In this document: one piece after another, positions 25,590 through 58,966 of the stretch
Layout of the letters: every line of letters begins with the position of its first letter
How positions within the stretch are numbered: position 1 is the first letter of the stretch
DNA from: Dimargaris cristalligena
Lineage: Eukaryota
Reading direction: 5' to 3'
DNA length: 60,522 nt
NCBI GenBank assembly: GCA_003614675.1
Contig: ML002243.1
Span: 1-60,522 of the forward strand
Translations under genes and position numbers: made by a program
The notes under the pieces: generated by a model
What the model was told of the DNA's origin: nothing
Seen by the model: the letters and a program-made list of their open reading frames with translations, nothing else
The model's database searches: none

Positions 25590-26827
25590 ATGGCCCGGAA
25601 AACCGCCGAGAAATCTCGCGCCATGAGTGTCGATTCCAGTGACGAAAGCGTCAGCGTCTCCACGGTCAAGGTCGTACCGTCGAAGAAAGCCAACGGCAAA
25701 TCCAAGTTAGTGGCTGCCCAGGATAACGATGTTGATGAAGGTGATGAAGCCTCCCAACCCGAAGAAGCAAAGGCCGAGGTTAATGGCGACGAGGTCGAAG
25801 ACTCCGAGGACTCCGAGGTTTACGTGGTCGAAAAGATTATCAAGCACCGAACGAAGGGGGTAAGCTATACTAACATTTGCCTAGCTTGATTCATTCTAGT
25901 CTCATCCCCCATATATATATATATATATACTCGCGTGATTTTTATTCGTATCCGAAGTCTACTAGAAAGTCGGTGATGATAGTAGTAGACCCGGTCCATT
26001 CCTACCGCGATGTTGGACTAACCCCTTCCGATGTTCTCCACCATCACATTGTCTGATTGCTGGCGACTCTCTCTCTCTCTCTCCCTCTCTCTAGGGCAAG
26101 ACGGAATACTTTCTCAAGTGGCAAGGCTACGGCGAGGAAGATAATACTTGGGAACGAGAGGATAACGTGTAAGTCCCATTTAACTAGATTTCTTATATCA
26201 GGGACCTATCTCTTATCCTCTACAGTATGTAGATTTTTATATATGTTGCATCACAAGTCATCTTCGTAGTCAAGATCAAACACGTACTTTTTTTTTTAAA
26301 AAAAAGTAATAATTGCCGAATATTAATGAAATTTATGAGCGTATCGATACACCTGGTTTTATTGCGCATCCCTTCTCACCCATTAACCTAGCTTCTGCCA
26401 TGATCTGGTAGATGCCTATTGGAAGAGTATCGACAAGAAGAACTCCCCCGCCAAGGCCACCCCCCGGGCCAAGCGTAAGCGTAACTCCCTGGCGGCCCAA
26501 TCGCCGACCATTTCCATTACCCCCATGGACGACGAGGTCGCATTCCCCGACCCCGATGCCGAGTCCTGGGAAGACTCTGTTAAACAAGTGGTGAACGTCG
26601 AACACACCGAAGACGGTCTCTACATTCACCTGGAGTGGAAGAACGGCCGCTTGACGTGCCATCGGAGTGATATCGTCAACCATAAATGCCCCCAGACCAT
26701 CATCTCTTTCTACGAAAGTAAGCTGCACTTCAAGCGGCCTACGGCTAAGGAGGCTGCCAAAGAGGCCGCTGCCAAGGCGGCTACCGCTAAAGCAGATGAA
26801 GAGGCGACGAAGGATGATTCGGATTAA
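25590..26827 (+). CDS. HP1/Swi6-like chromodomain + chromo-shadow protein, 3 coding exons
   Basis: Exons 25590-25859, 26095-26168, 26392-26827 give [50 protein letters not shown], a basic hinge KRKR and shadow domain SWEDSV...KCPQTIISFYESKLHF. Probable 5'UTR intron ~25039-25471. Confidence 0.92.
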
Positions 26828-34555: not shown

Positions 34556-37500
34556 ATGCCTTCCCGTATGCGCTACTATGTGGGAGTGGATGTCGGTACC
34601 GGTTCCGTTCGAGCGGGTCTCTTTGCCCTAGCCCCTCCACCATCCCCGGTGGAAAGAGACGAAACGGCGTCTTCGACCTGCTCGCAAGGGACTGCTGCTA
34701 GTAGTAGTAGTAGTAGTTCCGCAGCTTCCGTTCCCGCCTCCTCTTCGGCCCAAATGGTGGCCCTTCATAAACAGGCCATTACCACCCGTACCAACTGGCA
34801 CCCCGTGTTCCGAGGTCCCCCTCATTCTACTTTTTCCTCCTCCTCTTCAACCTCTTCGGAAGCCGTTAGCGTGCGTCAATGCGTCCAATCCAGTACCGAA
34901 ATCTGGCAAGCGGTTTGCCATTGTGTGCAACAGTGTCTCCAAACCGCCCAAGCGCACCACCACCGGTTACAGCAACTGCAGCAGTCACCGGAGGGGGTTG
35001 CTTTTGATGTTACCCAAGTCGCCGGGATTGGTTTCGATGCCACTTGTTCTCTAGTGGTCTTGGCGGAGCCTCCCCCAACTACGCCTACGCCCACTTCTAC
35101 TCCTACCGCCCATAATACCACCACCACCACCACTACCACTTACCCAACCCTGTCCCAGGCCCCGGCTGAACAATGGCAGCCTATTGGGGTCTCCCAGACT
35201 GCTTTAAGGGCCCGTATCCACCGACTTTGCGGGGCTGAAGGGGGGACTGGGGAAATGAACGACCATGAAGGACGGGGGGAAAGGGGCGAGAGCGGGGAAG
35301 AAGGAGGCCCCGGCTCACCGTGTCCTTTACGTCAAGAGGCCGATGGTTCCACGAAAGATGATGATGATGATGCGGCTGATAATGCTGGTGAAGATGGAGA
35401 TGCTTTTAATGTTGTCCTATGGATGGACCACCGAGCGCCCGACCAAACCGCTCGTATTAGTCGGTCATCCGTGGGAGCCCAACGGGTATTTCGGTATGTG
35501 GGGGGCCAAATGTCCATTGAAATGGAACTACCCAAGATTCTGTGGCTGAAAGAGTACTGCCTCTGGGGTGATCACGGCCATCATCACCCCGGACGCCACC
35601 AGCCCCGGCCGTCGTACCCACCCAACTCGGAGGCCCCGAACTCAAACTCAAACTTGAATTCGACCTCCGCCTCAGCCCCAGCCCCAGCCCCAGCCCCAAC
35701 TCCAACCTCAGCCGTACCGTCCGAATCCGGCCAACGCGTTTGGGATTCGATGCACTTTTTTAGTCTATCCGACTTTCTGACCTTTCGCTGTACCGGTCGG
35801 CCGGCACGGTCCACGTGTTCGCTAATTTGTAAATGGGGTTATCTGCCCCCCGGGACCGTCCCAGCTGATTCTAGTGGAGGGGGTTGGGACGGGGCGTTTT
35901 TGCGGGATATCGGTTTGGCCGACCTAACCGTTGACCACTATAAGCGGATTGGTGGCCACAGCGGTACGGCCCATACCGAAAAGGCATGGGGTGGTGGTGA
36001 TGATCATGATATTCATAATCATAATCATAGTGGTGATCCCGCGGAACTAGTCCATCGGGCCGGCGACTGGGTGGGCAATTTGACCCCCCAAGCAGCTCGT
36101 GAATTAGGGTTGACCACCCAAACCCGAGTGGGTTCGGCGGTCATTGATGCCTACGCGGGCTGGATTGGGACGGTCCTCACCATGAACCCGGCTGATGCAG
36201 CCGTTACCCCGAATCAAAACAGCCACTCCCCTAATGGCCATGCGGCTGCTTCCTCCGGGACCACGGCACTGGTAGACCAAATGACCCACCGCCTAGTAAT
36301 TACGTGCGGTACTTCGTCGTGCCATTTAGCCGCCCACCCCCAGCCCCTCTTCGTGTCGGGTATTTGGGGACCATACTACAACGTTGCCGTACCCGGCCTG
36401 TGGCTCACGGAGGGGGGGCAGAGTGCCACGGGGGCCTTGGTGGACTACCTAGTAAGCCAGCACCCGGCTTACCCTTGGCTGTATCAGGCTATACGGCAAG
36501 GCCACTCCCCGTCCGCTCTTCTATCGGGGAATCCTTTTGCCGGACAAAGTGGCCGTGGCACTGCTTGTGTAGTACCTCCTAGAGGGAAACTACAGTCCGC
36601 TAAACCTACTTCAGCCGTCTACGACTACCTTAATGCCCTAGTTCGGGAGGCGGTGGCTACCCCCTCCTCCTCCTCCCCTCGTCACCAGAGCCCCGGGTTA
36701 GAGTTACCCACACCGGTGACCCAGCTGGAGCAACCCTATCGGGGGTACTTGGATCTCATTGACCACCAAACGTACCATTTTCTCCCCGACTGGCACGGAA
36801 ATCGTTCTCCACTCAGCGACGCCAGTTTGCGGGGGGCTATCGTGGGCCTTGCCCTGGACGAAGGGTCCTCTAACGATCACGGTAATCCCCTCGCCCTAGT
36901 CAAGGTGTATCTGGCGGCCTGTATGGCCCTGGCTTACGGCACCCGCCAGATTATCGACCGTCTCACCGGGCCCCAACCCAAACCTAAGCCTAAGCAGGGT
37001 AATCTTACTACCCATCATGCGGAGGGTCCCCATGTTTCGGCGGCGGAGTTGCCGCTCGGGCAGCAGCCGAGGCATGTCATCACTGAATTAGTAATGGCGG
37101 GTGGGTGGGCCCAAAACGACCTTTTTGTCCAGATACACGCCGATGTGACGGGTCGGCCGGTTTACGTACCGCAGGTGGACCAAGGGGCCGAAGTCGTTTT
37201 GGGGTCGGCCATGTGTGGCTATGCCGCCGAGTTAGCAGCGGAGGCAATGGAAACAACGGTAGCGGCAGCGACAACAACAGTGGATGCCAAGTCACCAGCC
37301 CCTCCTACCTGTCCACTGAACGAGCAGTCCGGGGCCCGACGATCCCCTCCTAATGTCAAATTCCCGATACCCCCCCTCCCAACTCCCGGCACGGACCCGC
37401 AGTTCTTGCTCACCGCTATGCGACATATGCGCCCCCCACCCGGCCGGGTGGTCCTGCCCTGTCTAACGGACCGGGAACGAACTATCCATGGGCGCCGGTA

Positions 37501-37570
37501 TCAAGTCATGTGTCGAATGCAACAGGACCAAAAGGCCTACCAAGCGATTATGGCTGGACAGTCGTTGTAG
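34556..37570 (+). CDS. FGGY-family carbohydrate (D-ribulose/pentulose) kinase with long low-complexity insertions
   Basis: YYVGVDVGTGSVRA, GIGFDATCSLVV, VLWMDHRA, EMELPKILWLK, IDAYAG, GTSSCH, WLTEGGQSATG, PDWHGNRSP. Intronless; start taken at ATG 34556. Confidence 0.92.
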   Translation: MPSRMRYYVGVDVGTGSVRAGLFALAPPPSPVERDETASSTCSQGTAASSSSSSSAASVPASSSAQMVALHKQAITTRTNWHPVFRGPPHSTFSSSSSTSSEAVSVRQCVQSSTEIWQAVCHCVQQCLQTAQAHHHRLQQLQQSPEGVAFDVTQVAGIGFDATCSLVVLAEPPPTTPTPTSTPTAHNTTTTTTTTYPTLSQAPAEQWQPIGVSQTALRARIHRLCGAEGGTGEMNDHEGRGERGESGEEGGPGSPCPLRQEADGSTKDDDDDAADNAGEDGDAFNVVLWMDHRAPDQTARISRSSVGAQRVFRYVGGQMSIEMELPKILWLKEYCLWGDHGHHHPGRHQPRPSYPPNSEAPNSNSNLNSTSASAPAPAPAPTPTSAVPSESGQRVWDSMHFFSLSDFLTFRCTGRPARSTCSLICKWGYLPPGTVPADSSGGGWDGAFLRDIGLADLTVDHYKRIGGHSGTAHTEKAWGGGDDHDIHNHNHSGDPAELVHRAGDWVGNLTPQAARELGLTTQTRVGSAVIDAYAGWIGTVLTMNPADAAVTPNQNSHSPNGHAAASSGTTALVDQMTHRLVITCGTSSCHLAAHPQPLFVSGIWGPYYNVAVPGLWLTEGGQSATGALVDYLVSQHPAYPWLYQAIRQGHSPSALLSGNPFAGQSGRGTACVVPPRGKLQSAKPTSAVYDYLNALVREAVATPSSSSPRHQSPGLELPTPVTQLEQPYRGYLDLIDHQTYHFLPDWHGNRSPLSDASLRGAIVGLALDEGSSNDHGNPLALVKVYLAACMALAYGTRQIIDRLTGPQPKPKPKQGNLTTHHAEGPHVSAAELPLGQQPRHVITELVMAGGWAQNDLFVQIHADVTGRPVYVPQVDQGAEVVLGSAMCGYAAELAAEAMETTVAAATTTVDAKSPAPPTCPLNEQSGARRSPPNVKFPIPPLPTPGTDPQFLLTAMRHMRPPPGRVVLPCLTDRERTIHGRRYQVMCRMQQDQKAYQAIMAGQSL

Positions 37571-39523
37571 GTTGGGCGAGGAAGTAACCCCCCCCCCTTC
37601 ACACTCTCGTGGTCCAGTATTTTCTTTAAAAAAATGGGATTTGAATAAAGCAATTGTTTTGGGGCTAATAATTATAGACCTTTTACCCCTCTCTGCCCTA
37701 TTGATCGAGGGGGACGCCGACACCACGCCTTGGGTGGTATAGCTGGGGACTTTATATTTTTTATTGAAGGAGTAGGTTGAAACTGGCTAATGTAATTGGC
37801 GATAAGTACGTGGCCTGTGTGTGTGTCTGTATAAACCCCCACTGACTAATATAATCCTTGGTTTTCGGAAGTTACGGATAGATTGGGCAGTGCCATTGTA
37901 ATTATTATCGAGGATGGGCTCAGGCTTTTCAACTATTGCCCCTGCTTTATATCTCACCGATGTAATATAAGATCCGAGAAGATTCGGACTGTAAGCCTTC
38001 GGTCAAATATCCAAGCTTAGAGTGGTCAGGAGGGGGGCAGAGGAGGTGGAAGGAGGGATATCGGAAACCCACCTTCGGCTTCCATGGCGGGGTTCGGAAA
38101 AATGCAGAGTAGTTCCAATTAGTCATGACGCCTCCCTCTCCCTCTCTTTCAACTCGAATAAAATAGTACATTAGTGTAATGGCCCATGCTTAGCCCTATA
38201 CATTTATATCCGGTTGCGCAGTAAAAGTTACACCAAGATATGAGCCGCGGCCATACTAACCGCGAGGGCCACACCATGGACTTATAGGCGGAATTTTGGA
38301 CCACTCAATGGACCCGGGCTCTGATATATATATATATATTCCGGGAACCCCCGTTTCAGAGGACAAAGGATCTGGGAATCATATGCCCAACGAAGGGTCT
38401 TTAGCCTTTTCGTCCGATCCCTCTTTCATCCCTCCCCACCCATCCAATAGGCGGGTACGGCCCCCAAAAATAGCTCGAGGCCCTCAATGAGGCCAGCGAA
38501 CATCCAATGCTTAGCAGCCCTTTTCCCTTCCTCCAGCTCTATTCTGGCAAATGGTTTAAGCCAAACTCCGCTGTATTCGATCTCCTACCTTCCCGTCCCC
38601 TCTGCTATACTCGCCAATTAGATATTGATGAGATCCGTGGCACAGAACAGGTGTACTTTATTCGCATATCCTTGGGCTGACCCAATTGACTGGTGTCGCC
38701 TTAGATTTGAGGGTACAGGGAAAGAGAAGGTGGAAAAAGAAGAGCCCAAGGATCTCTGTAAGTGGGGAGAGGGGGATAATTTAGGGAAAGGTCGAGGAGT
38801 TCCGAGCCGGCTAGCCATAGGCCCACACTATCCCCACCTCCTTGCTTTGGCTTCTTTCGATGCCTTCGGTGGAGAATATTACCCGATCCCGCCTCCCTTT
38901 GTTTAGTTTAACCAAAAGGGGCGTTCCTTCGATTTGCATAGTTTTAGTTCCTGCGCTAATTTTTAGGTGCGGCGTCGGCCACTTTGGTACCTTCCCGAAA
39001 ACCCTACCACTCAACAGGAACCATTCCCGCCCTATGCCCCGAAAAATGAACATATATAAATGGTCCCCCGCTCCCCTCTTCTGCTATTCAAAATCAACCT
39101 TACCACAGCCGATATTCACCCAGTCTAACACCAGTTTATTAATTGGAAGTCAACCGCCACTTATTTATATCACCAGCATTTGGTTTTTGAAAACGTTTCG
39201 CCCTATTATTCGTTTTGACCATTAATTCTACTTGTGATTTACATATAGTTTTGTCTATTCTTTTTTAGATTGATCCAGCCTAAAAAATAATATATATACT
39301 GGCGGCTTTCATTTTGAATTTTGACTATCCAGTTTAATAGATTTTTCGAGACCTGCCGGTCTGTGTATATAGGTTAATTTTTATAGATATTACTTTTTAA
39401 CTCGTCTTACTCTACCGTATCTAGCCCACTGCCACTAAATTATTTACCGTTTTACTTTTTTAAAACCCTGTTTTTACTTAACCCCCCGACCCCAGCCCAA
39501 AAAACCACCTTACTTTTATCATC

Positions 39524-40243
39524 ATGAAGATCCTCCTCGCTTACGTTGCCCTCCAGACCGTTTTGCCCGGCTATTTGGCCAGCCCGTCGCCCGCTCAGGC
39601 CACTGGTGGAATGGTACCTCTACATCGTCGGGACCTTGGTGGACCCTCTTCGTCAACCTTAGCCGCGTCCACCCCTTCCATTCAGCTCCAGAAGCGCAGC
39701 CCCTGGTTCAACCGGGAGGGCGAAACCGACACTAGCTCGTCCGACACCGATACTGACGAAGAGAACGTCCGCTACCCCGTCGAACAATCCAGTGCAGGCT
39801 TAGTGCGCCGCGGGCTTCGACTCCAGAAGCGCAGCCCCTGGTTCAACCGGGAGGGCGAAACCGACACTAGCTCGTCCGACACCGATACTGACGAAGAGAA
39901 CGTCCGCTACCCCGTCGAACAATCCAGTGCAGGCTTAGTGCGCCGCGGGCTTCGACTCCAGAAGCGCAGCCCTTGGTTCAACCGGGAGGGCGAAACCGAC
40001 ACTAGCTCGTCCGACACCGATACTGACGAAGAGAACGTCCGCTACCCCGTCGAACAACCCAGTGCAGGCTTAGTGCGCCGCGGGCTTCGACTCCAGAAGC
40101 GCAGCCCCTGGCTCAACCGGGAGGGCGAAACTGACACCAGCTCGTCCGACACCGATACCGATGAAGAGAACATCCGCGACACTGTGCCATTGGCGCGCCG
40201 TGGACTTTTCCGGCGTAAGTTTACGATGACGCGCGAAATCTAA
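39524..40243 (+). CDS. Secreted Kex2-processed repeat protein (peptide precursor)
   Basis: Signal-peptide-like MKILLAYVALQTVLPGYLA; four units each preceded by LQKR and followed by RR; 45-aa period. Confidence 0.85.
   Translation: MKILLAYVALQTVLPGYLASPSPAQATGGMVPLHRRDLGGPSSSTLAASTPSIQLQKRSPWFNREGETDTSSSDTDTDEENVRYPVEQSSAGLVRRGLRLQKRSPWFNREGETDTSSSDTDTDEENVRYPVEQSSAGLVRRGLRLQKRSPWFNREGETDTSSSDTDTDEENVRYPVEQPSAGLVRRGLRLQKRSPWLNREGETDTSSSDTDTDEENIRDTVPLARRGLFRRKFTMTREI
39686..40210 (+). repeat. 135-bp tandem coding repeat, 3 full copies + 1 diverging copy
   Basis: CTCCAGAAGCGCAGCCC starts at 39686, 39821, 39956 and 40091. Copies 1-2 appear identical; copies 3-4 carry a few substitutions. Confidence 0.95.
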
Positions 40244-41630
40244 TTAGCATTGCCAGCCTGGTCTATTTTGGGTAACATACAGCAAACATTGAAAGAGAAA
40301 CGTTCGAATAGTTCAGCAGACCATTACGTTTGTCGTATCAGAGGCATTGGTATTTTTAAATACGCATGCTAGTCTCGATACCATTACATACGCTCTTTCA
40401 GGAAGACTTCTTCTGCTAGTTTTACGATGCCTCGACGGCCTGACTATATTGCTTCGAATCGAGCTGGCCTACTCGATTAGTTTAGTTTTTTTTTCTTTGA
40501 TTGTGATGGAGTATGTAGCCCCGTGAGTGGGCTATTGGGTTAGTTTTTACTTATAGTTTTGAATTTTAGGATCTATTTATGGTTATATATTTGTATATAT
40601 TCTACTCGTTAGCTGGACTCAATAAACTGGAAGTCTTCCTTTTACTCTGGTCCTAGTCATGGTCCGCCGTGTAGTTCGAGCTAGGCCAATTCGTTGAATG
40701 AATGTATATCTGGCTCATACCCACTTGGATACTGTCCCACCCCCCCCCAGACTTTCTCTCTTGGTATACTTGACTGAACGGGGCTTTAGTTTGCCCTAGT
40801 CCTTTTCCCCACCGACCAAATCATAGATACACCCGACAAATTGGTCTGATAGCGGCATTTTTCAATTCTAACGGTGGCGGTGAACCAGGGAACAACTTCG
40901 GCTCAGCTCCTGAAATCTAAGTGCAGGCCTCGTGTATTATCGCCACAGTATCGCTTAGCACACCACTCTCATATTTCTCCTGCGGTAGGTACGATAGTTA
41001 GGTATGGGGCAGGGGGGAGAGGTGCATACTTGCCGTTAATAGTAGCGGTTCCCTCAGTTTATAAGAGACGGAGGCGACTAAAACCACCATCCGTTTTGCT
41101 GAGGAACTCCGCTCTCCTGGAACAGTTAAAAGCTCAACCTACCGATTCGAGATGGAAAGTACTTTTCACGCACAGCAACAGGAGCAGTTTTACCACACTC
41201 ATGTACGCGCACACACTCGCACTCTCGCGCATGTGGATTGGTGATGACTGGGTGTTGGCATGTCGGTGCAGTAGAAGTGGTCGACAGGAGAGAGAAGCAG
41301 TGGGGGTGAATTGTAGTATTCGTACGCAATTGAATTAGTCGATCCAAGGGAGAGTCATCGCCATATTCATAAGCAGTCCTATATAAGGTTCCGGCTGGGC
41401 ATCCGGGAATCGGATTTCTAAATGCCGTTCCTTATTTACACCCTCTAATGACCGGGTTAGTCTGTTTATCGCCCTCTTAGCCGTAAGCATCTCCACTTAC
41501 TTCTGCTTGTAATGCCCGTAACGCCCTGCACCGCTTCTCCCTCGTCATATTGATTTCCTCTTTCTTCCCATTCCTCCTCCTCCGCTGTGTTGCACTTCCC
41601 GACGAAATGACTTATTATAACTGTTTTAGT

Positions 41631-42014
41631 ATGAAGTCCCTTATCATGTTCCTCTCGCTCCAAGCCCTCCTGTCCGGCGGATACATGGCCCTTCCGATTG
41701 AAGAAAAGCAGCCGGCGCCCGGGGCCGGGGCCAGTCTGGGGGAACTCAACTCGCTTCTACCCACCGACTCCATCATCCAGACGCTAGAATTGTACATCAA
41801 GGGGAAGCCCATTCTTCCGTTTAGCCGGCGTAGCTGTGCCGAAGGCCACTCCGGTTCGGCGCCCAGCTACCGCCGTGTACCGGGCGGGGCGGCGGTCTCC
41901 AAGTGCCAGCCCCGTCCCAAGTCGGTCCAAGCGACCGCTCCGGGCTCGAACGCCGCGGATAGTAGTGACACCAGCGATGATGGGGAAACATCCTCCAGCG
42001 ACGACGACGATTGA
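41631..42014 (+). CDS. Small secreted protein, diverged paralog of the repeat precursor
   Basis: Signal MKSLIMFLSLQALLSGGYMALP aligns with MKILLAYVALQTVLPG-YLASP. Internal RR sites. Ends GETSSSDDDD. Likely 5'UTR intron ending TTTTAG just before the ATG. Confidence 0.72.
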   Translation: MKSLIMFLSLQALLSGGYMALPIEEKQPAPGAGASLGELNSLLPTDSIIQTLELYIKGKPILPFSRRSCAEGHSGSAPSYRRVPGGAAVSKCQPRPKSVQATAPGSNAADSSDTSDDGETSSSDDDD

Positions 42015-54901: not shown

Positions 54902-57900
54902 ATGTCGACTCCCCATCCCTCTTCTACACCGGGTGCCTGGGTTGACCCTACCATAGACCGGTCGCTTCTACGTTCCCGCACCTTCCCTCCCCTTTTGGCA
55001 GTCCCGGGCCAGCAGGCACCGGGCGGGCTGAACCGACAACCAACGTCCATGTCCAATGTCACCCTTTTTACCACGACCATGCCTACCGAGCTGTACAATC
55101 GGGAGCGACCCCCCGGCACCTACGAGTCCGGCTGGTGGCGCTTCCCGTCTCTGAACAGCCTCAGCTTCGAACTCGACGCAGGCATACGCGGTCGGGCCTG
55201 GTCCTTCTTCGATTTAAGTTTGAGCATAGCCCAATGCCTCCTGTTTATTTGCAGCACCGCGTATGTGGATGCAGCTGAGCGGCCCATTCCGCTGCCGGCT
55301 TACTTGAGCGGTCTGGAGATTCTCGTGGCCCTCACTATTTTGCTCGAGTCGGGACTGCGCAACCTTCTCCTATCCCGGGCCCGTCGGACCCTCTACGCTA
55401 CCATGCTGGTCCTTGTAACCGTTCCCCCGATGATAGCCGGCTGGAATGCCCTGCAGTATCCCGCCAGCGCAGCCACCTACCTTAGTGCGGGCAATTGGGT
55501 GCTGTTCTACCCGATTCGCTTTTACCGATTGTACCTGTCTAGTGAACAGGCCTTCGCTCCCGGGCGAGTACTTCTGTTTAACATTGGCCCCTTTTATCGT
55601 AAATTCGCCACCCTGGTTTCCGCCGTGCTTAGCACTATTATGGGCATAGCGGCTTTTATCCACGCCGTACTCCATTGGTACCCGGGTTCCCACGTTGAGC
55701 CCGAGTTCAGCTACTTCGATGCCTTCTTTTTCAGCGCCACCTGTATCACTGTTGGACCAAACGACAACATCGTTCCCGACGTTTGGCTGACTCGCATTAT
55801 GACGCTAGTCACTATTTTCGTGGCGGCCGTGTTTTTACCCACCCAGATCAGCGACCTTATCGGCATGATTGAGAAACAAACCTCCGGTTTTCAGTTGAGC
55901 GTGCCCGAAATCACATCCAGCCAGTGGGTGATTATTGCCGGCAATTTGAGCTTCGAGGTTGTACAGCCCTTTCTTAGAGAATTCTTCAGCCCTGACCACG
56001 GTGAGTCGATTCAGCGGGTCTCGGTGGTCCTGCTCAGCAAAGCCCACCTTAGTGATGATCTGCGCGGGTTCCTCGCCGATCCCATCTACTCTACTCGGGT
56101 GTTCCACTATCGCAAAGACCCCACCAACTACGAGGTGCTGGCCAAACTAAACGTGCAGCAGGCCAGTGCCGTATTTATCCTGGGCGACAAATGGACCAAA
56201 GTCTCGCCCCACGAGGAAGATGCCCATGTGGTTCGAATTACCCTGGCCTTTGCCTCGTTCTTCAAAAAAAAAAATTATGTCGTGGTGCCCCGTCTCTACT
56301 GCCAGGTGATCCTGCCCGACTCGCAGTTCCACTTTAAGGGCTGGGGGCTATACCGACCCACGGTCCAGTGCGTCGACGAATTCCGCATGGGCCTCATGGC
56401 ACAGAGTTGCACTACCCCGGGGTTTTCCACCCTGATGCACCTGTTGTCTTCCTCGGTGACCCAGGATACGGCCAATGTCATTACCGATGCCTTAAAAAGT
56501 CAACTGCCGACGGGTGAGCTCCCCTGGATGCCCATGTACTTGGAGGGAGTGATCCAGGAGATTTACCAAATACGCATCCCCACGGGCTACCACGGGTATC
56601 ACTTCGGCACCGTCGCCCGGTCCATTTACTTTAATTGCAAAGCGGTACTCATTGGGCTGGGGGTCCGGCCTACGAGCCGGGGCGGCGGGGCGGCCGCGGA
56701 CTACGCCCCCAGTTCGGCGGCCGAAGGGAATACCGGAACCCACCGCCTCTTGATGGCCCCCTTTAACCATATCATCACCAGCGGGGATATCGGGTTCGTC
56801 ATTGCCAAAGACGCTAATATCCGCGAGATCATTGACCGAATCCAAGTGGCGGTGAATCGGCCGCCCCCTAAATCCGGGGCAGGTAGTCAGCCGGCCGGGA
56901 CTATGCAGCTTTCGGCCAATATTACGCGTATCCCCTCTCAGACGTCCCTATACGATTCCGCGATGCTGCTACCCCAGACCCGTATCGGCACTGCGGAGAC
57001 GACCCCACTCCTGTCTTTGGAAAGTCCCGCCGATGATTCCCCTACTTACGATGGCAGTCCCGGTAATTCTGCTTCAGGTCAGTTGCACTGGGCCCCCCCT
57101 AATCGGCAAAACCCTAACAACCATAGCGATCACGATGATGGTAGCAGTATCCATGCTGACCCGGTCTTTGATTCACCACTACCCCGCCCGGTCAATTTGG
57201 CCGCTCGTACGGGTAATGGTTCCGCCCACCATTCGTCCGATGACGGAGGGACCGCACCCGGCAGCGTAGAGCCCACCGAGCAACTGCACCAGAGGGTCCG
57301 CCGAACCTTTGACCGGGTGTTTGAGTCCACCCCGGGCGTAGTCAATTACGTCAAGGACCGGTACGCCAATGTGGTTCGGGAGCAACGCCTGGTTCCCGAA
57401 GACATCGATAACCACATCATCATAACCGACTGCAGTCCCGAATTCCCGCGGAATATCGAATATCTGGTCGAATCCATCCAATTAGCGTATAGCCAGGAGA
57501 ACTACGATACCCCTCCGCCAATTGTCATTCTTAGCCCCGCCGAACCCAGCTTCTTGCTCAAGCGGTGGCTCGAGTCCATTGAGGATGTCCACGTGGTACC
57601 CGGTACGCCCCTCAATTACATAGATCTTAAGATGATCAAAATTAACCGAGCCCAAACCGCTATTGTGTTATGCCACCTGTCCCCGTCCGGTGACGGAGAC
57701 CTCTCGGCCCGGTCCATTGATGCGACTTCTCTAATGGCCGAAATGAATCTGCGCCGGTTTGGTAACCGAAACTTGAAAACGATTGTGGAGGTGGCCTATT
57801 CGGGCAACGCCCAGTTGATTCCCCAGGAGTTTTTCCCGGATATTGACGACCAGGACGTGCAGGATCTGACGCGACAGTCGTTCATGTCTGGATCGGCGAT

Positions 57901-58966
57901 TCTCCCGGCGATGCTAGATAATTTGATTTGTACCTCCTATTTCAATCCCTTCCACTTGGATATTTTTAAACACTTGATTTTTCCCTATGATCCGCAGGCT
58001 AGCCGGCGTTCCCCACCCTCCTCCCGCCGCCGGCAGCACCTCCAAAATGGGGGGGACCTAGCCCCCGCTAGCCCAGTACTGGTAGGGGCCAATCACCTTT
58101 TCCGGGCCAATAATGGCGAGTCAGCAGCCCAGGGCCCTGGTTTACTGAGCCCCACGGACATGCCCGACGCCATTGCTATTCGAATTACCGGGGATTCCGA
58201 CGAGAGTAGCGCCTCCAATTCCCCCACCAGTGAAATGATCGAGCGGTTCTCCCCGGCTCTCGGACCGGCCGCAGTAACTACCCGACCCGCGGATCCAATT
58301 GCCCAAAACCACCACCACCAACCCCTCCCCAACGGCGGGACCCCTCCTGTCGCTGGTTCGGGCCCTGCCTCGCTTAATACCGAGCCAGCCGCAGCCGGCC
58401 ACGGCAGTGATCGAGAGGACCACAATTCGGCCAAGTCCATCCGCCACTCCCAATCACTCCCCGCCCTGGACCAGCTTTACTCCGCCCAGTCCACCCCACT
58501 GAACGCGAGTTCCGCCATCTTAACCAGCGGGCGGATCTTCCTCATCCCGGTGACCCGGGCGGGGGAAAAGTACGGCAAACTCGTGAATCGCCTGGCCAAA
58601 TACGACCAGGCCATTGCCCTCGGCTTATACCGGCTGGTCGAGAGCCGTGGGTTCAGTTACCGGTGTGTCATGGTTAACCCTCGGGCTGATCACCTAACCT
58701 TGGAAACGGACCAGGTATACGTACTGGCTCCCCGGCGACCCGACCAACTGGTCGCCATGAATAACATGCACCCTAGTGATCCAAGTCTGGAACCTGACTT
58801 TAACCACCAACCGCAGTCGGATCACTCTTCCACCGGAGGGTCGGCCAGACCTACCCGTCCGTACCGACGACCCATATTCAACAATCTATTGAAAATCAGC
58901 ACCCACAACCAAGACCGTTTGAATGTAGTTCCTCAGGACGGTATGATTTCCCCCGTCGATATCTAA
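54902..58966 (+). CDS. Slo/BK-like channel (TM domain + two RCK domains) with non-canonical selectivity filter
   Basis: Multi-TM N-terminus; pore helix YFDAFFFSATCITVGPND; FLREFFSPDHG; VQCVDEFRMGLMAQSCTTPGFSTLMHLL; YLEGVIQEIY; NHIII; GTPLN; Ca-bowl-like DIDDQD followed by FMSG...LDNLICTSYFNP. Intronless, 1354 aa. Confidence 0.88.
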   Translation: MSTPHPSSTPGAWVDPTIDRSLLRSRTFPPLLAVPGQQAPGGLNRQPTSMSNVTLFTTTMPTELYNRERPPGTYESGWWRFPSLNSLSFELDAGIRGRAWSFFDLSLSIAQCLLFICSTAYVDAAERPIPLPAYLSGLEILVALTILLESGLRNLLLSRARRTLYATMLVLVTVPPMIAGWNALQYPASAATYLSAGNWVLFYPIRFYRLYLSSEQAFAPGRVLLFNIGPFYRKFATLVSAVLSTIMGIAAFIHAVLHWYPGSHVEPEFSYFDAFFFSATCITVGPNDNIVPDVWLTRIMTLVTIFVAAVFLPTQISDLIGMIEKQTSGFQLSVPEITSSQWVIIAGNLSFEVVQPFLREFFSPDHGESIQRVSVVLLSKAHLSDDLRGFLADPIYSTRVFHYRKDPTNYEVLAKLNVQQASAVFILGDKWTKVSPHEEDAHVVRITLAFASFFKKKNYVVVPRLYCQVILPDSQFHFKGWGLYRPTVQCVDEFRMGLMAQSCTTPGFSTLMHLLSSSVTQDTANVITDALKSQLPTGELPWMPMYLEGVIQEIYQIRIPTGYHGYHFGTVARSIYFNCKAVLIGLGVRPTSRGGGAAADYAPSSAAEGNTGTHRLLMAPFNHIITSGDIGFVIAKDANIREIIDRIQVAVNRPPPKSGAGSQPAGTMQLSANITRIPSQTSLYDSAMLLPQTRIGTAETTPLLSLESPADDSPTYDGSPGNSASGQLHWAPPNRQNPNNHSDHDDGSSIHADPVFDSPLPRPVNLAARTGNGSAHHSSDDGGTAPGSVEPTEQLHQRVRRTFDRVFESTPGVVNYVKDRYANVVREQRLVPEDIDNHIIITDCSPEFPRNIEYLVESIQLAYSQENYDTPPPIVILSPAEPSFLLKRWLESIEDVHVVPGTPLNYIDLKMIKINRAQTAIVLCHLSPSGDGDLSARSIDATSLMAEMNLRRFGNRNLKTIVEVAYSGNAQLIPQEFFPDIDDQDVQDLTRQSFMSGSAILPAMLDNLICTSYFNPFHLDIFKHLIFPYDPQASRRSPPSSRRRQHLQNGGDLAPASPVLVGANHLFRANNGESAAQGPGLLSPTDMPDAIAIRITGDSDESSASNSPTSEMIERFSPALGPAAVTTRPADPIAQNHHHQPLPNGGTPPVAGSGPASLNTEPAAAGHGSDREDHNSAKSIRHSQSLPALDQLYSAQSTPLNASSAILTSGRIFLIPVTRAGEKYGKLVNRLAKYDQAIALGLYRLVESRGFSYRCVMVNPRADHLTLETDQVYVLAPRRPDQLVAMNNMHPSDPSLEPDFNHQPQSDHSSTGGSARPTRPYRRPIFNNLLKISTHNQDRLNVVPQDGMISPVDI

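Follow-up and report, generated by a model that had tools for sequence, protein, structure and literature searches.

What does the repetitive open reading frame at positions 39524..40243 (+) of the Dimargaris cristalligena contig ML002243.1 encode, and what might its product do for a fungus that parasitizes other fungi? In the window, by which we mean the whole analyzed stretch of 60,522 nt, this ORF corresponds to a KEP-type (KEX2-processed repeat protein) precursor of 239 aa, and the evidence from frame, GC content, and codon usage makes it a credible candidate for a real, translated, and lineage-specific gene of this mycoparasite. The layout that a first-pass annotation of the same DNA had described, comprising the ORF, a pro-region, four units, a Ser-to-Pro exchange in unit 3, and the divergence of unit 4, was seen again throughout in the window sequence. 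Our reading, which we consider probable, is that the ORF encodes a secreted precursor that would be cut by Kex2 into linear acidic peptides.

Several features argue for a coding function. Across the repeat array, only 1 of the 6 frames, that of the precursor, is open, while the other five hold 3 to 8 stops. The GC content of the ORF amounts to 61%, compared to 34% and 40% in its flanks, and its GC3 is 0.70 (0.53–0.80 in ten comparison ORFs of the window). Its codon usage is like that of the 10 comparison ORFs, with a bias that was reached by 0 of 5,000 synonymous simulations. Upstream, a TATA-like box (TATATAAA, 39053..39060, +) probably represents the core promoter and is followed by an AT-rich (34% GC) probable 5′ leader (39080..39523, +), which may hold an unrecognized intron. 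Not a single ATG was found in the 444 nt of this leader, a result reached in 83 of 5,000 first-order Markov simulations; ATG-free gaps of at least 440 nt account for 4 of the 957 gaps on the plus strand, the leader being one of them and the array itself another. At the other end, the C-terminal tail (40196..40243, +) contains two more L-x-R-R sites, the last Arg pair of which harbors a perfect GTAAGT (40215–40220, +); several sites 33–158 nt further on might serve as its acceptor. The GTAAGT could be a splice donor, and an intron at this position would alter only the C-terminal tail, i.e., the last few residues.

The exact 239-aa protein was absent from a collection of approximately 15 billion sequences, in which 4 of the 8 window proteins that were looked up, including a neighboring 127-aa ORF, were present. 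Therefore, gene callers apparently skipped the precursor gene; three other window ORFs were also missing from this collection, probably through different gene models. Searches with the whole protein against 221 candidates of 131–419 aa yielded no match at E ≤ 10, and none of 10 candidates of 57–182 aa matched the first 104 residues. Since no model was found in either length range or among 1.84 billion representatives, the precursor gene seems to be unannotated. The sole match among these representatives, irrespective of length, was a 908-aa protein (E = 5e-6, 29% identity) with an unrelated repeat of its own (TPR-like by eye), which we attribute to chance. PDB sequences contained no match to the precursor, and the 4 weak Pfam matches, none of them to MF_alpha, were all under the cut-off. 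In the ESM Atlas, the best score was 0.83, without a family, and nothing was found at 0.9. Among 100 pattern matches in metagenome contigs, a single locus (L001, 31% identity) was considered and rejected, as this chance tblastn match overlaps a prokaryotic ORF of 408 aa (L001, 4522–5748), whose product looks like a flavodiiron protein. In the literature searched, which covered few subscription journals, no description of the acidic peptide was found, and neither SPWF nor WFNR occurs in the supplement of Le Marquer (4 files, 89,120 characters; the peptide table is perhaps incomplete), whose list of genomes does not include Dimargaris. The precursor thus appears to be an orphan for which no true homolog was found, in line with the first-pass annotation, which did not recognize a described peptide in its core.

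The genomic setting is one of housekeeping genes: exons for squalene epoxidase and the gene of an FGGY kinase are located upstream, and those of a mitochondrial carrier and a DNAJC11 homolog downstream. The FGGY-family carbohydrate kinase (34556–37570, +) reaches 1,004 aa through long low-complexity insertions. Elsewhere in the window, an exon with a Chromo shadow domain probably belongs to an HP1-type heterochromatin protein (26387–26824, +), and an arylesterase (paraoxonase-like) match lies close to the contig start (728–1546, −). Furthermore, a single ORF of 1,354 aa (54902–58966, +) carries the domains of a Slowpoke/BK calcium-activated potassium channel (Pfam Slo-like_RCK and BK_channel_a), a type better known from animals, and has its 90% cluster in common with KAJ1989358.1 of D. 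cristalligena.

A second orphan, probably secreted protein of 127 aa (P0001, annotated) is encoded on the strand of the precursor, 1.4 kb further downstream (41631–42014, +); ahead of it lie a TATA-like box (41380) and what is likely a 5′ intron (41483–41629). Its N-terminus looks similar to that of the precursor, it has 2 Cys and an acidic Ser/Asp tail, and the three codons that directly follow its stop read as an Ala-Arg-Tyr-Pro-like sequence, which may be compared with the Arg-Tyr-Pro of the repeat unit. The only one of 37 candidate homologs to match was the protein itself, and the Atlas was uninformative. When neighbor and precursor were compared against shuffles, the match was reached 4 times in 2,000 for the unit and 3 times in 2,000 for the N-terminus. 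However, when the window was divided into 1,482 tiles from all six frames, three unrelated ones beat the unit match (44 vs 43), the N-terminal match was equaled by a region without any relation to it (46), and the DNA similarity was no better than in shuffles (136/200). Paralogy of the two genes, which is not above chance in the tile control and at shuffle level in the DNA, is therefore unproven, with an ancient paralogy being possible.

Tandem Repeats Finder placed a 135-nt tandem array of 3.6 copies, which is also covered by DNA runs, at 39686..40177 (+), with 97% matches, no indels, and a score of 928; the next best score among its 9 rows in the window was 67. In the precursor, the array translates into three complete units of 45 aa and a fourth that is shortened. 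No difference separates unit 1 from unit 2, unit 3 departs from them at 2 bases, one silent (39973) and one changing Ser to Pro (40058), and unit 4 agrees for 29 codons, with Leu for Phe and Ile for Val, before it continues into a shorter, diverged tail.

Five DNA runs contain the stretch, and the array was covered in 4 of the 4 that were compared (at most 3 samples from 2 studies), with the frame intact and no loose ends; no RNA run was listed for it, which speaks neither for nor against expression. Three silent variants that are absent from the window (39727, 39751, and 39763 in unit-1 coordinates) occur in X3, X4, and X5, i.e., in 3 of the 4 runs. In X4, they are found together with the Ser-to-Pro change on one 122-base record, while in X3 a record with the three silent variants spans the Ser-to-Pro position without carrying this fourth difference (among 8 of the 22 X3 records). 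Since X4 joins Ser-to-Pro to the three silent variants, and unit 3 of the window carries Ser-to-Pro without them, we infer that the window probably shows unit 3 as a mosaic created during assembly and that Ser-to-Pro is not a fixed feature. In X5, unit 4 has Val in place of its Ile and thereby agrees with the remaining units at this codon (among 8 of the 76 X5 records). D. cristalligena has been proposed to be non-haploid (PMC9866270), so some of the array variants may be allelic.

Record-depth ratios suggest about three full units each in X1 (2.7) and X4 (3.4), and either 2.4–2.8 or 6.8 full units in X3, where depth is uneven, depending on the flank taken. For X5, with even flanks (178 and 188), 5.2–5.5 full units were obtained, an estimate drawn from one 60-base record (8 of 76 records) and from depth, which is no copy number; this hints at a unit number that differs between isolates, with about five full units in X5. 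Another record with identical proteins lies on a contig that, at 60,673 bases, exceeds the window by 151, an excess that could mostly be explained by one extra 135-nt unit. A silent or decaying ORF, or an assembly artifact, would fit the missing annotation, the lack of relatives, and the mosaic look of unit 3 in the window. We nevertheless consider this improbable in view of the intact frame in all four runs from two studies, the codon bias, the ATG-free leader, and the bias toward silent changes described below.

The precursor would probably enter the secretory pathway through its N-terminus (39524..39601, +), where hydropathy evaluated by hand and the −3/−1 rule support the earlier call of a signal peptide as a probable one, with cleavage somewhere after residues 19–27. 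Lys2 is followed by a hydrophobic stretch, with 9-residue Kyte-Doolittle means of up to 2.1, and the h-region is broken by Gln-Thr. The simple −3/−1 rule fits a cut after residues 20, 22, 24, 26, or 27, but not after residue 19, the most natural-looking cut.

Further downstream, the dibasic sites themselves are informative. Leu occupies P4 at all 10 KR/RR sites of the precursor (5 different tetrapeptides), compared to 4 of 45 in ten other ORFs of the window; with no more than two contexts counted as independent, P is still 0.008. Kex2 prefers Leu at P4 (motif: Leu/aliphatic at P4, K/R at P2, and Arg at P1; PMC8528282), and this extended motif was found at 10 of the 10 precursor sites. The first predicted Kex2 site (LHRR) is part of a V-P-L-x-R-R-x-L motif (39614..39637, +) that recurs in the tail. 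In an alignment picked by eye, the two copies have 6 of 8 residues in common, 5 of these 6 on different codons, and 13 of 24 bases alike; a motif kept on different codons is the pattern that selection on cleavage would leave.

The architecture agrees with what has been defined for KEPs, i.e., three or more tandem repeats, each 8 to 100 aa long, between KR, KK, RK, or RR sites (PMC7329392), as the fragments here measure 36, 36, 36, and 31 aa. A second survey additionally requires that repeats make up at least 15% of the protein, with at least 4 fragments and no membrane segment (PMC6339444). In the precursor, repeats cover 4 × 31 of 239 residues (52%), 11 fragments result, and the best 11-residue mean hydrophobicity of the core is 0.25, as expected without a membrane segment. 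The KEP assignment of the first-pass annotation is thus borne out by the repeat definitions of both surveys, and the consistent Leu at P4 strengthens its Kex2 reading.

In silico cutting after every KR/RR, followed by basic trimming, yields acidic peptides of 36, 36, 36, and 31 aa, as anticipated earlier (three of about 36 aa plus a shorter one). Peptide 1 would comprise residues 59–94 (36 aa; 39698..39805, +), and the predicted peptide 2 (39833..39940, +) is identical to it. Peptide 3 (39968..40075, +) carries the Ser-to-Pro change at 40058 in this assembly and is probably a mosaic of two unit types, while the predicted peptide 4 (40103..40195, +) has 31 aa, with Leu for Phe and a shorter C-terminal part. 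Further predicted products, which the first-pass annotation did not list, are three basic GLRLQ pentapeptides, the linkers between RR and KR (39812..39826, +, recurring at +135 and +270), a 20-aa pro-peptide, GLF, and short tail pieces. The acidic peptides have a predicted net charge of about −7.5, 9 Asp/Glu, 9–10 Ser/Thr (10 in peptide 1), and a GRAVY of about −1.2 (core, −1.22); the largest hydrophobic moment of the core is 0.36. Unmodified monoisotopic masses of 4003.7 Da (36-mer) and 3449.5 Da (31-mer) are predicted, which would fall to 3819.7 and 3265.4 Da upon loss of Ser-Pro, and 585.4 Da is predicted for the pentapeptide. The mature protein contains 0 Cys, each full core has one Tyr, and unit 4 has none. 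AlphaFold2, run on the single sequence without an alignment and thus weak as evidence, placed 0 residues at or above pLDDT 70, with a pTM of 0.12. It had been suggested that the acidic block could be phosphorylated, which we do not see confirmed: the core does not contain S-x-E, the Fam20C site, our literature search found nothing on a Fam20C-type secretory kinase in fungi, and O-mannosylation is what such Ser/Thr runs more usually undergo in fungi.

This composition also raises the question of whether the protein is cut at all. With 10 Ser/Thr per 36 residues, the disorder predicted by AlphaFold2, and a tandem repeat variation as typically seen in surface proteins of fungi (bioRxiv 2024.07.18.603779), it might be a secreted and O-mannosylated protein of the wall or surface that stays mostly uncut or is cut in part, with repeats that would provide length and charge. 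However, each unit carries two optimal Kex2 sites (Leu was found at P4 in all 10 cases), which would be costly for an intact polymer, and the unspliced ORF offers no hydrophobic C-terminus for a GPI anchor. PIR cell-wall proteins are described as having a Q-D-G-Q-Q anchoring motif and usually a Cys-rich domain, and as being confined to Ascomycota (bioRxiv 2024.07.18.603779). Membership in this family is excluded, as the motif is absent from the unit and there is no Cys, and a surface protein in general seems unlikely to us.

If a Kex2-cut precursor is assumed, the question becomes which of its products matters. Between the units, 10 distinct substitutions were found, all of them transitions, and 7 of the 10 are silent (P = 0.020 under a transition-only null), a test that comprises 10 sites only, from repeat copies that are not independent. 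Without the two sites of unit 3 in the window, 6 of 8 unit substitutions are silent (P = 0.016). Codon symmetry gives the antisense frame 7 of 10 as well, yet this frame carries 3 stops. None of the 6 changes within the acidic block alters a residue, and both replacements among the first 29 codons are located outside the block. Since one of them replaces the Phe adjoining Trp in unit 4, the acidic block, rather than the Trp-led end, points to being the constrained part.

This distribution bears on the view that the acidic 36-mer serves as a spacer to be discarded, with the activity residing in the GLRLQ linker or in a smaller fragment that is released by cleavage at a single Arg. Such an arrangement would resemble the acidic-spacer precursors of animals, and it would suit the prediction of two peptides released per unit and the retention of R-R-G-L between unit and tail. 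Furthermore, KEPs in Pichia showed cleavage after single Arg (PMC9769878). A neutral spacer should tolerate replacements, though, and the 6 of 6 silent changes in the acidic block argue against one, whereas the linker segment varies (20, 5, 5, 5, and 3 residues); we regard the spacer as quite improbable.

Another possibility is that the peptide is a self-signal. In this case, Kex2, Kex1, and a Ste13-type enzyme would free a Trp-led peptide, and its recognition by a GPCR of Dimargaris would serve zygospore formation, the coordination of hyphae, or quorum sensing. The first-pass annotation had likened the Trp-led terminus to that of alpha-type pheromones. To our knowledge, few sexual signals of Zoopagomycota have been described. 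All cores open with Ser-Pro-Trp, and the MF_alpha cluster ranked third in the Atlas feature search (0.78), though under the lead threshold of the tool. Ste13-type trimming has been demonstrated beyond Ascomycota, in mushrooms (PMC9769878). The precursors of ascomycete alpha-pheromones (MF-alpha, Ppg​A, and Ccg-4) are likewise similar in that KR is followed by X-P and then Trp, in their linear products, and in the lack of DUF3328. However, these precursors are described as containing peptides of 9–24 aa, often with repeated XA/XP after the dibasic site, and with a Cys pair or PYGxPxG (PMC6339444). In D. cristalligena, a member of a different phylum, the predicted product is strongly acidic and has 34–36 aa (29–31 in unit 4), without a Cys pair, a PYGxPxG motif, or an MF_alpha or MF_alpha_N Pfam match, so the pheromone slant fits poorly. 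The proposed Ste13 signature consists of one X-P dipeptide, Ser-Pro, from one independent context, with Pro plus Ala making up 10% of the residues of the mature protein. Moreover, unit 4 replaces the Phe next to the Trp.

A scan of all 144 stop-to-stop frames of at least 90 codons, which is confined to this contig and which shorter exons would escape, detected no pheromone receptor (STE2/STE3), processing protease, or DUF3328/UstYa family, and our literature search found nothing on the distribution of Ste2/Ste3 in Zoopagomycota. Among the early-diverging fungi of the Le Marquer set, yeast-like STE13 signatures are reported for Rhizophagus only (PMC6339444), and six KEP knockouts in Fusarium are described as lacking a sexual phenotype (PMC10589705). 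We regard a self-signal as doubtful.

For the Kex2-cut precursor, we propose the following route, which builds on general pathway knowledge and on the conservation of the sites. The protein would enter the ER via its signal peptide, a Golgi kexin would cut behind each L-x-[K/R]-R, and the basic pairs would be trimmed by a carboxypeptidase of the Kex1 type. One transcript would give rise to three copies of an unfolded 36-aa polyanion, a number that may be about five in one isolate, together with a 31-aa variant and the basic linkers, and these products would be linear and uncyclized. The length of the array would shift by whole in-frame units, which may tune the peptide dose. The N-terminal Ser-Pro might be removed by a dipeptidyl peptidase or might simply shield the terminus.

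With respect to function, the core is hydrophilic and anionic, lacks an amphipathic stretch, and has no confident AlphaFold2 residue, which argues against a membrane-lytic or repellent peptide. Dimargaritales are parasites of other fungi and attack them via an appressorium and a haustorium (PMC9866270). Our guess, which we hold with somewhat less than even confidence, is that the acidic block acts extracellularly, at the wall or at the interface of appressorium or haustorium and host, and binds cations or cationic host defense peptides or proteins. As the changes in the acidic block are silent in 6 of 6 cases and the replacements lie outside, this role is favored over the doubtful Trp-led ligand. 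A bolder version, to which we give a rather small chance, would see the products as a dose-tunable polyanionic effector or signal of a haustorial mycoparasite, which either neutralizes the cationic defenses of the host or serves as a peptide hormone of Zoopagomycota. On peptide signals in this phylum, our literature search found only computational KEP listings.

These listings are nonetheless substantial. Umemura 2020 reported 7,878 KEPs, 2,560 of them stand-alone, with the highest KEP density of all phyla in Zoopagomycota (11.56 per strain) and 11 KEPs for D. cristalligena, 11 of 11 being of the stand-alone type 0 (PMC7329392). Since no annotated model was found for the precursor, it is unlikely to be one of the 11 and probably constitutes an additional KEP. 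The case suggests that annotation-based KEP catalogs undercount. In mushrooms, KEP peptides have been detected by mass spectrometry, and a role in biotic interactions was proposed because Coprinopsis knockouts reportedly lacked a phenotype in axenic culture (PMC9769878). These results, like those from Fusarium, are compatible with an interaction role for KEP peptides but are no proof of it. Mycoparasites were left out of most comparisons by Le Marquer as too few (PMC6339444). While the class itself is ordinary, with stand-alone and orphan KEPs being common, the precursor represents a clean test case, as it combines a gene missed by annotation with clear Kex2 sites, signs of selection on the acidic core, a hint of varying unit number, and predicted masses. 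If its product were demonstrated, a KEP peptide would become known for both a phylum and a lifestyle (parasitism of fungus on fungus) that surveys could hardly analyze.

How does the precursor compare to other known systems? The peptides of Ustilago maydis Rep1 and Candida albicans Ece1 (candidalysin) are hydrophobic and amphipathic. Both systems resemble ours in being long linear peptides released by Kex2 from a repeat precursor of a host-living fungus, with the Rep1 peptide measuring 37 aa (PMC6339444), and they act as surface-active or cytolytic peptides (PMC9769878, PMC6339444). In contrast, the core of D. cristalligena is hydrophilic and anionic by the values of GRAVY (−1.22), net charge (−7.5), and maximum moment (0.36) given above.

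The precursors of dikaritins (ustiloxin, phomopsin, and asperipin-2a) have the KEP layout and a Tyr in the core in common with our precursor, in which each full core contains one, and a cyclic RiPP of this type would be conceivable on these grounds. However, a DUF3328/UstYa gene, which would be expected within about 15 genes, is absent from all 144 frames of at least 90 codons on the contig, in agreement with the first-pass view of a linear product without a tailoring cluster, and DUF3328 proteins were not detected outside Dikarya in the 2020 survey (PMC7329392). Moreover, the known repeats comprise 8–14 aa (PMC7329392), compared to a core of 36 aa that is about three times longer. A cyclic product of this kind is therefore extremely improbable.

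The closest parallel is found in the stand-alone type 0 KEPs, with which the precursor has the probable signal peptide, the pro-region, the repeats between dibasic sites, the lack of a DUF3328 neighbor, and the lack of homologs in common. It differs from them in having two cut sites per unit, from which long acidic and short basic peptides would be released in alternation.
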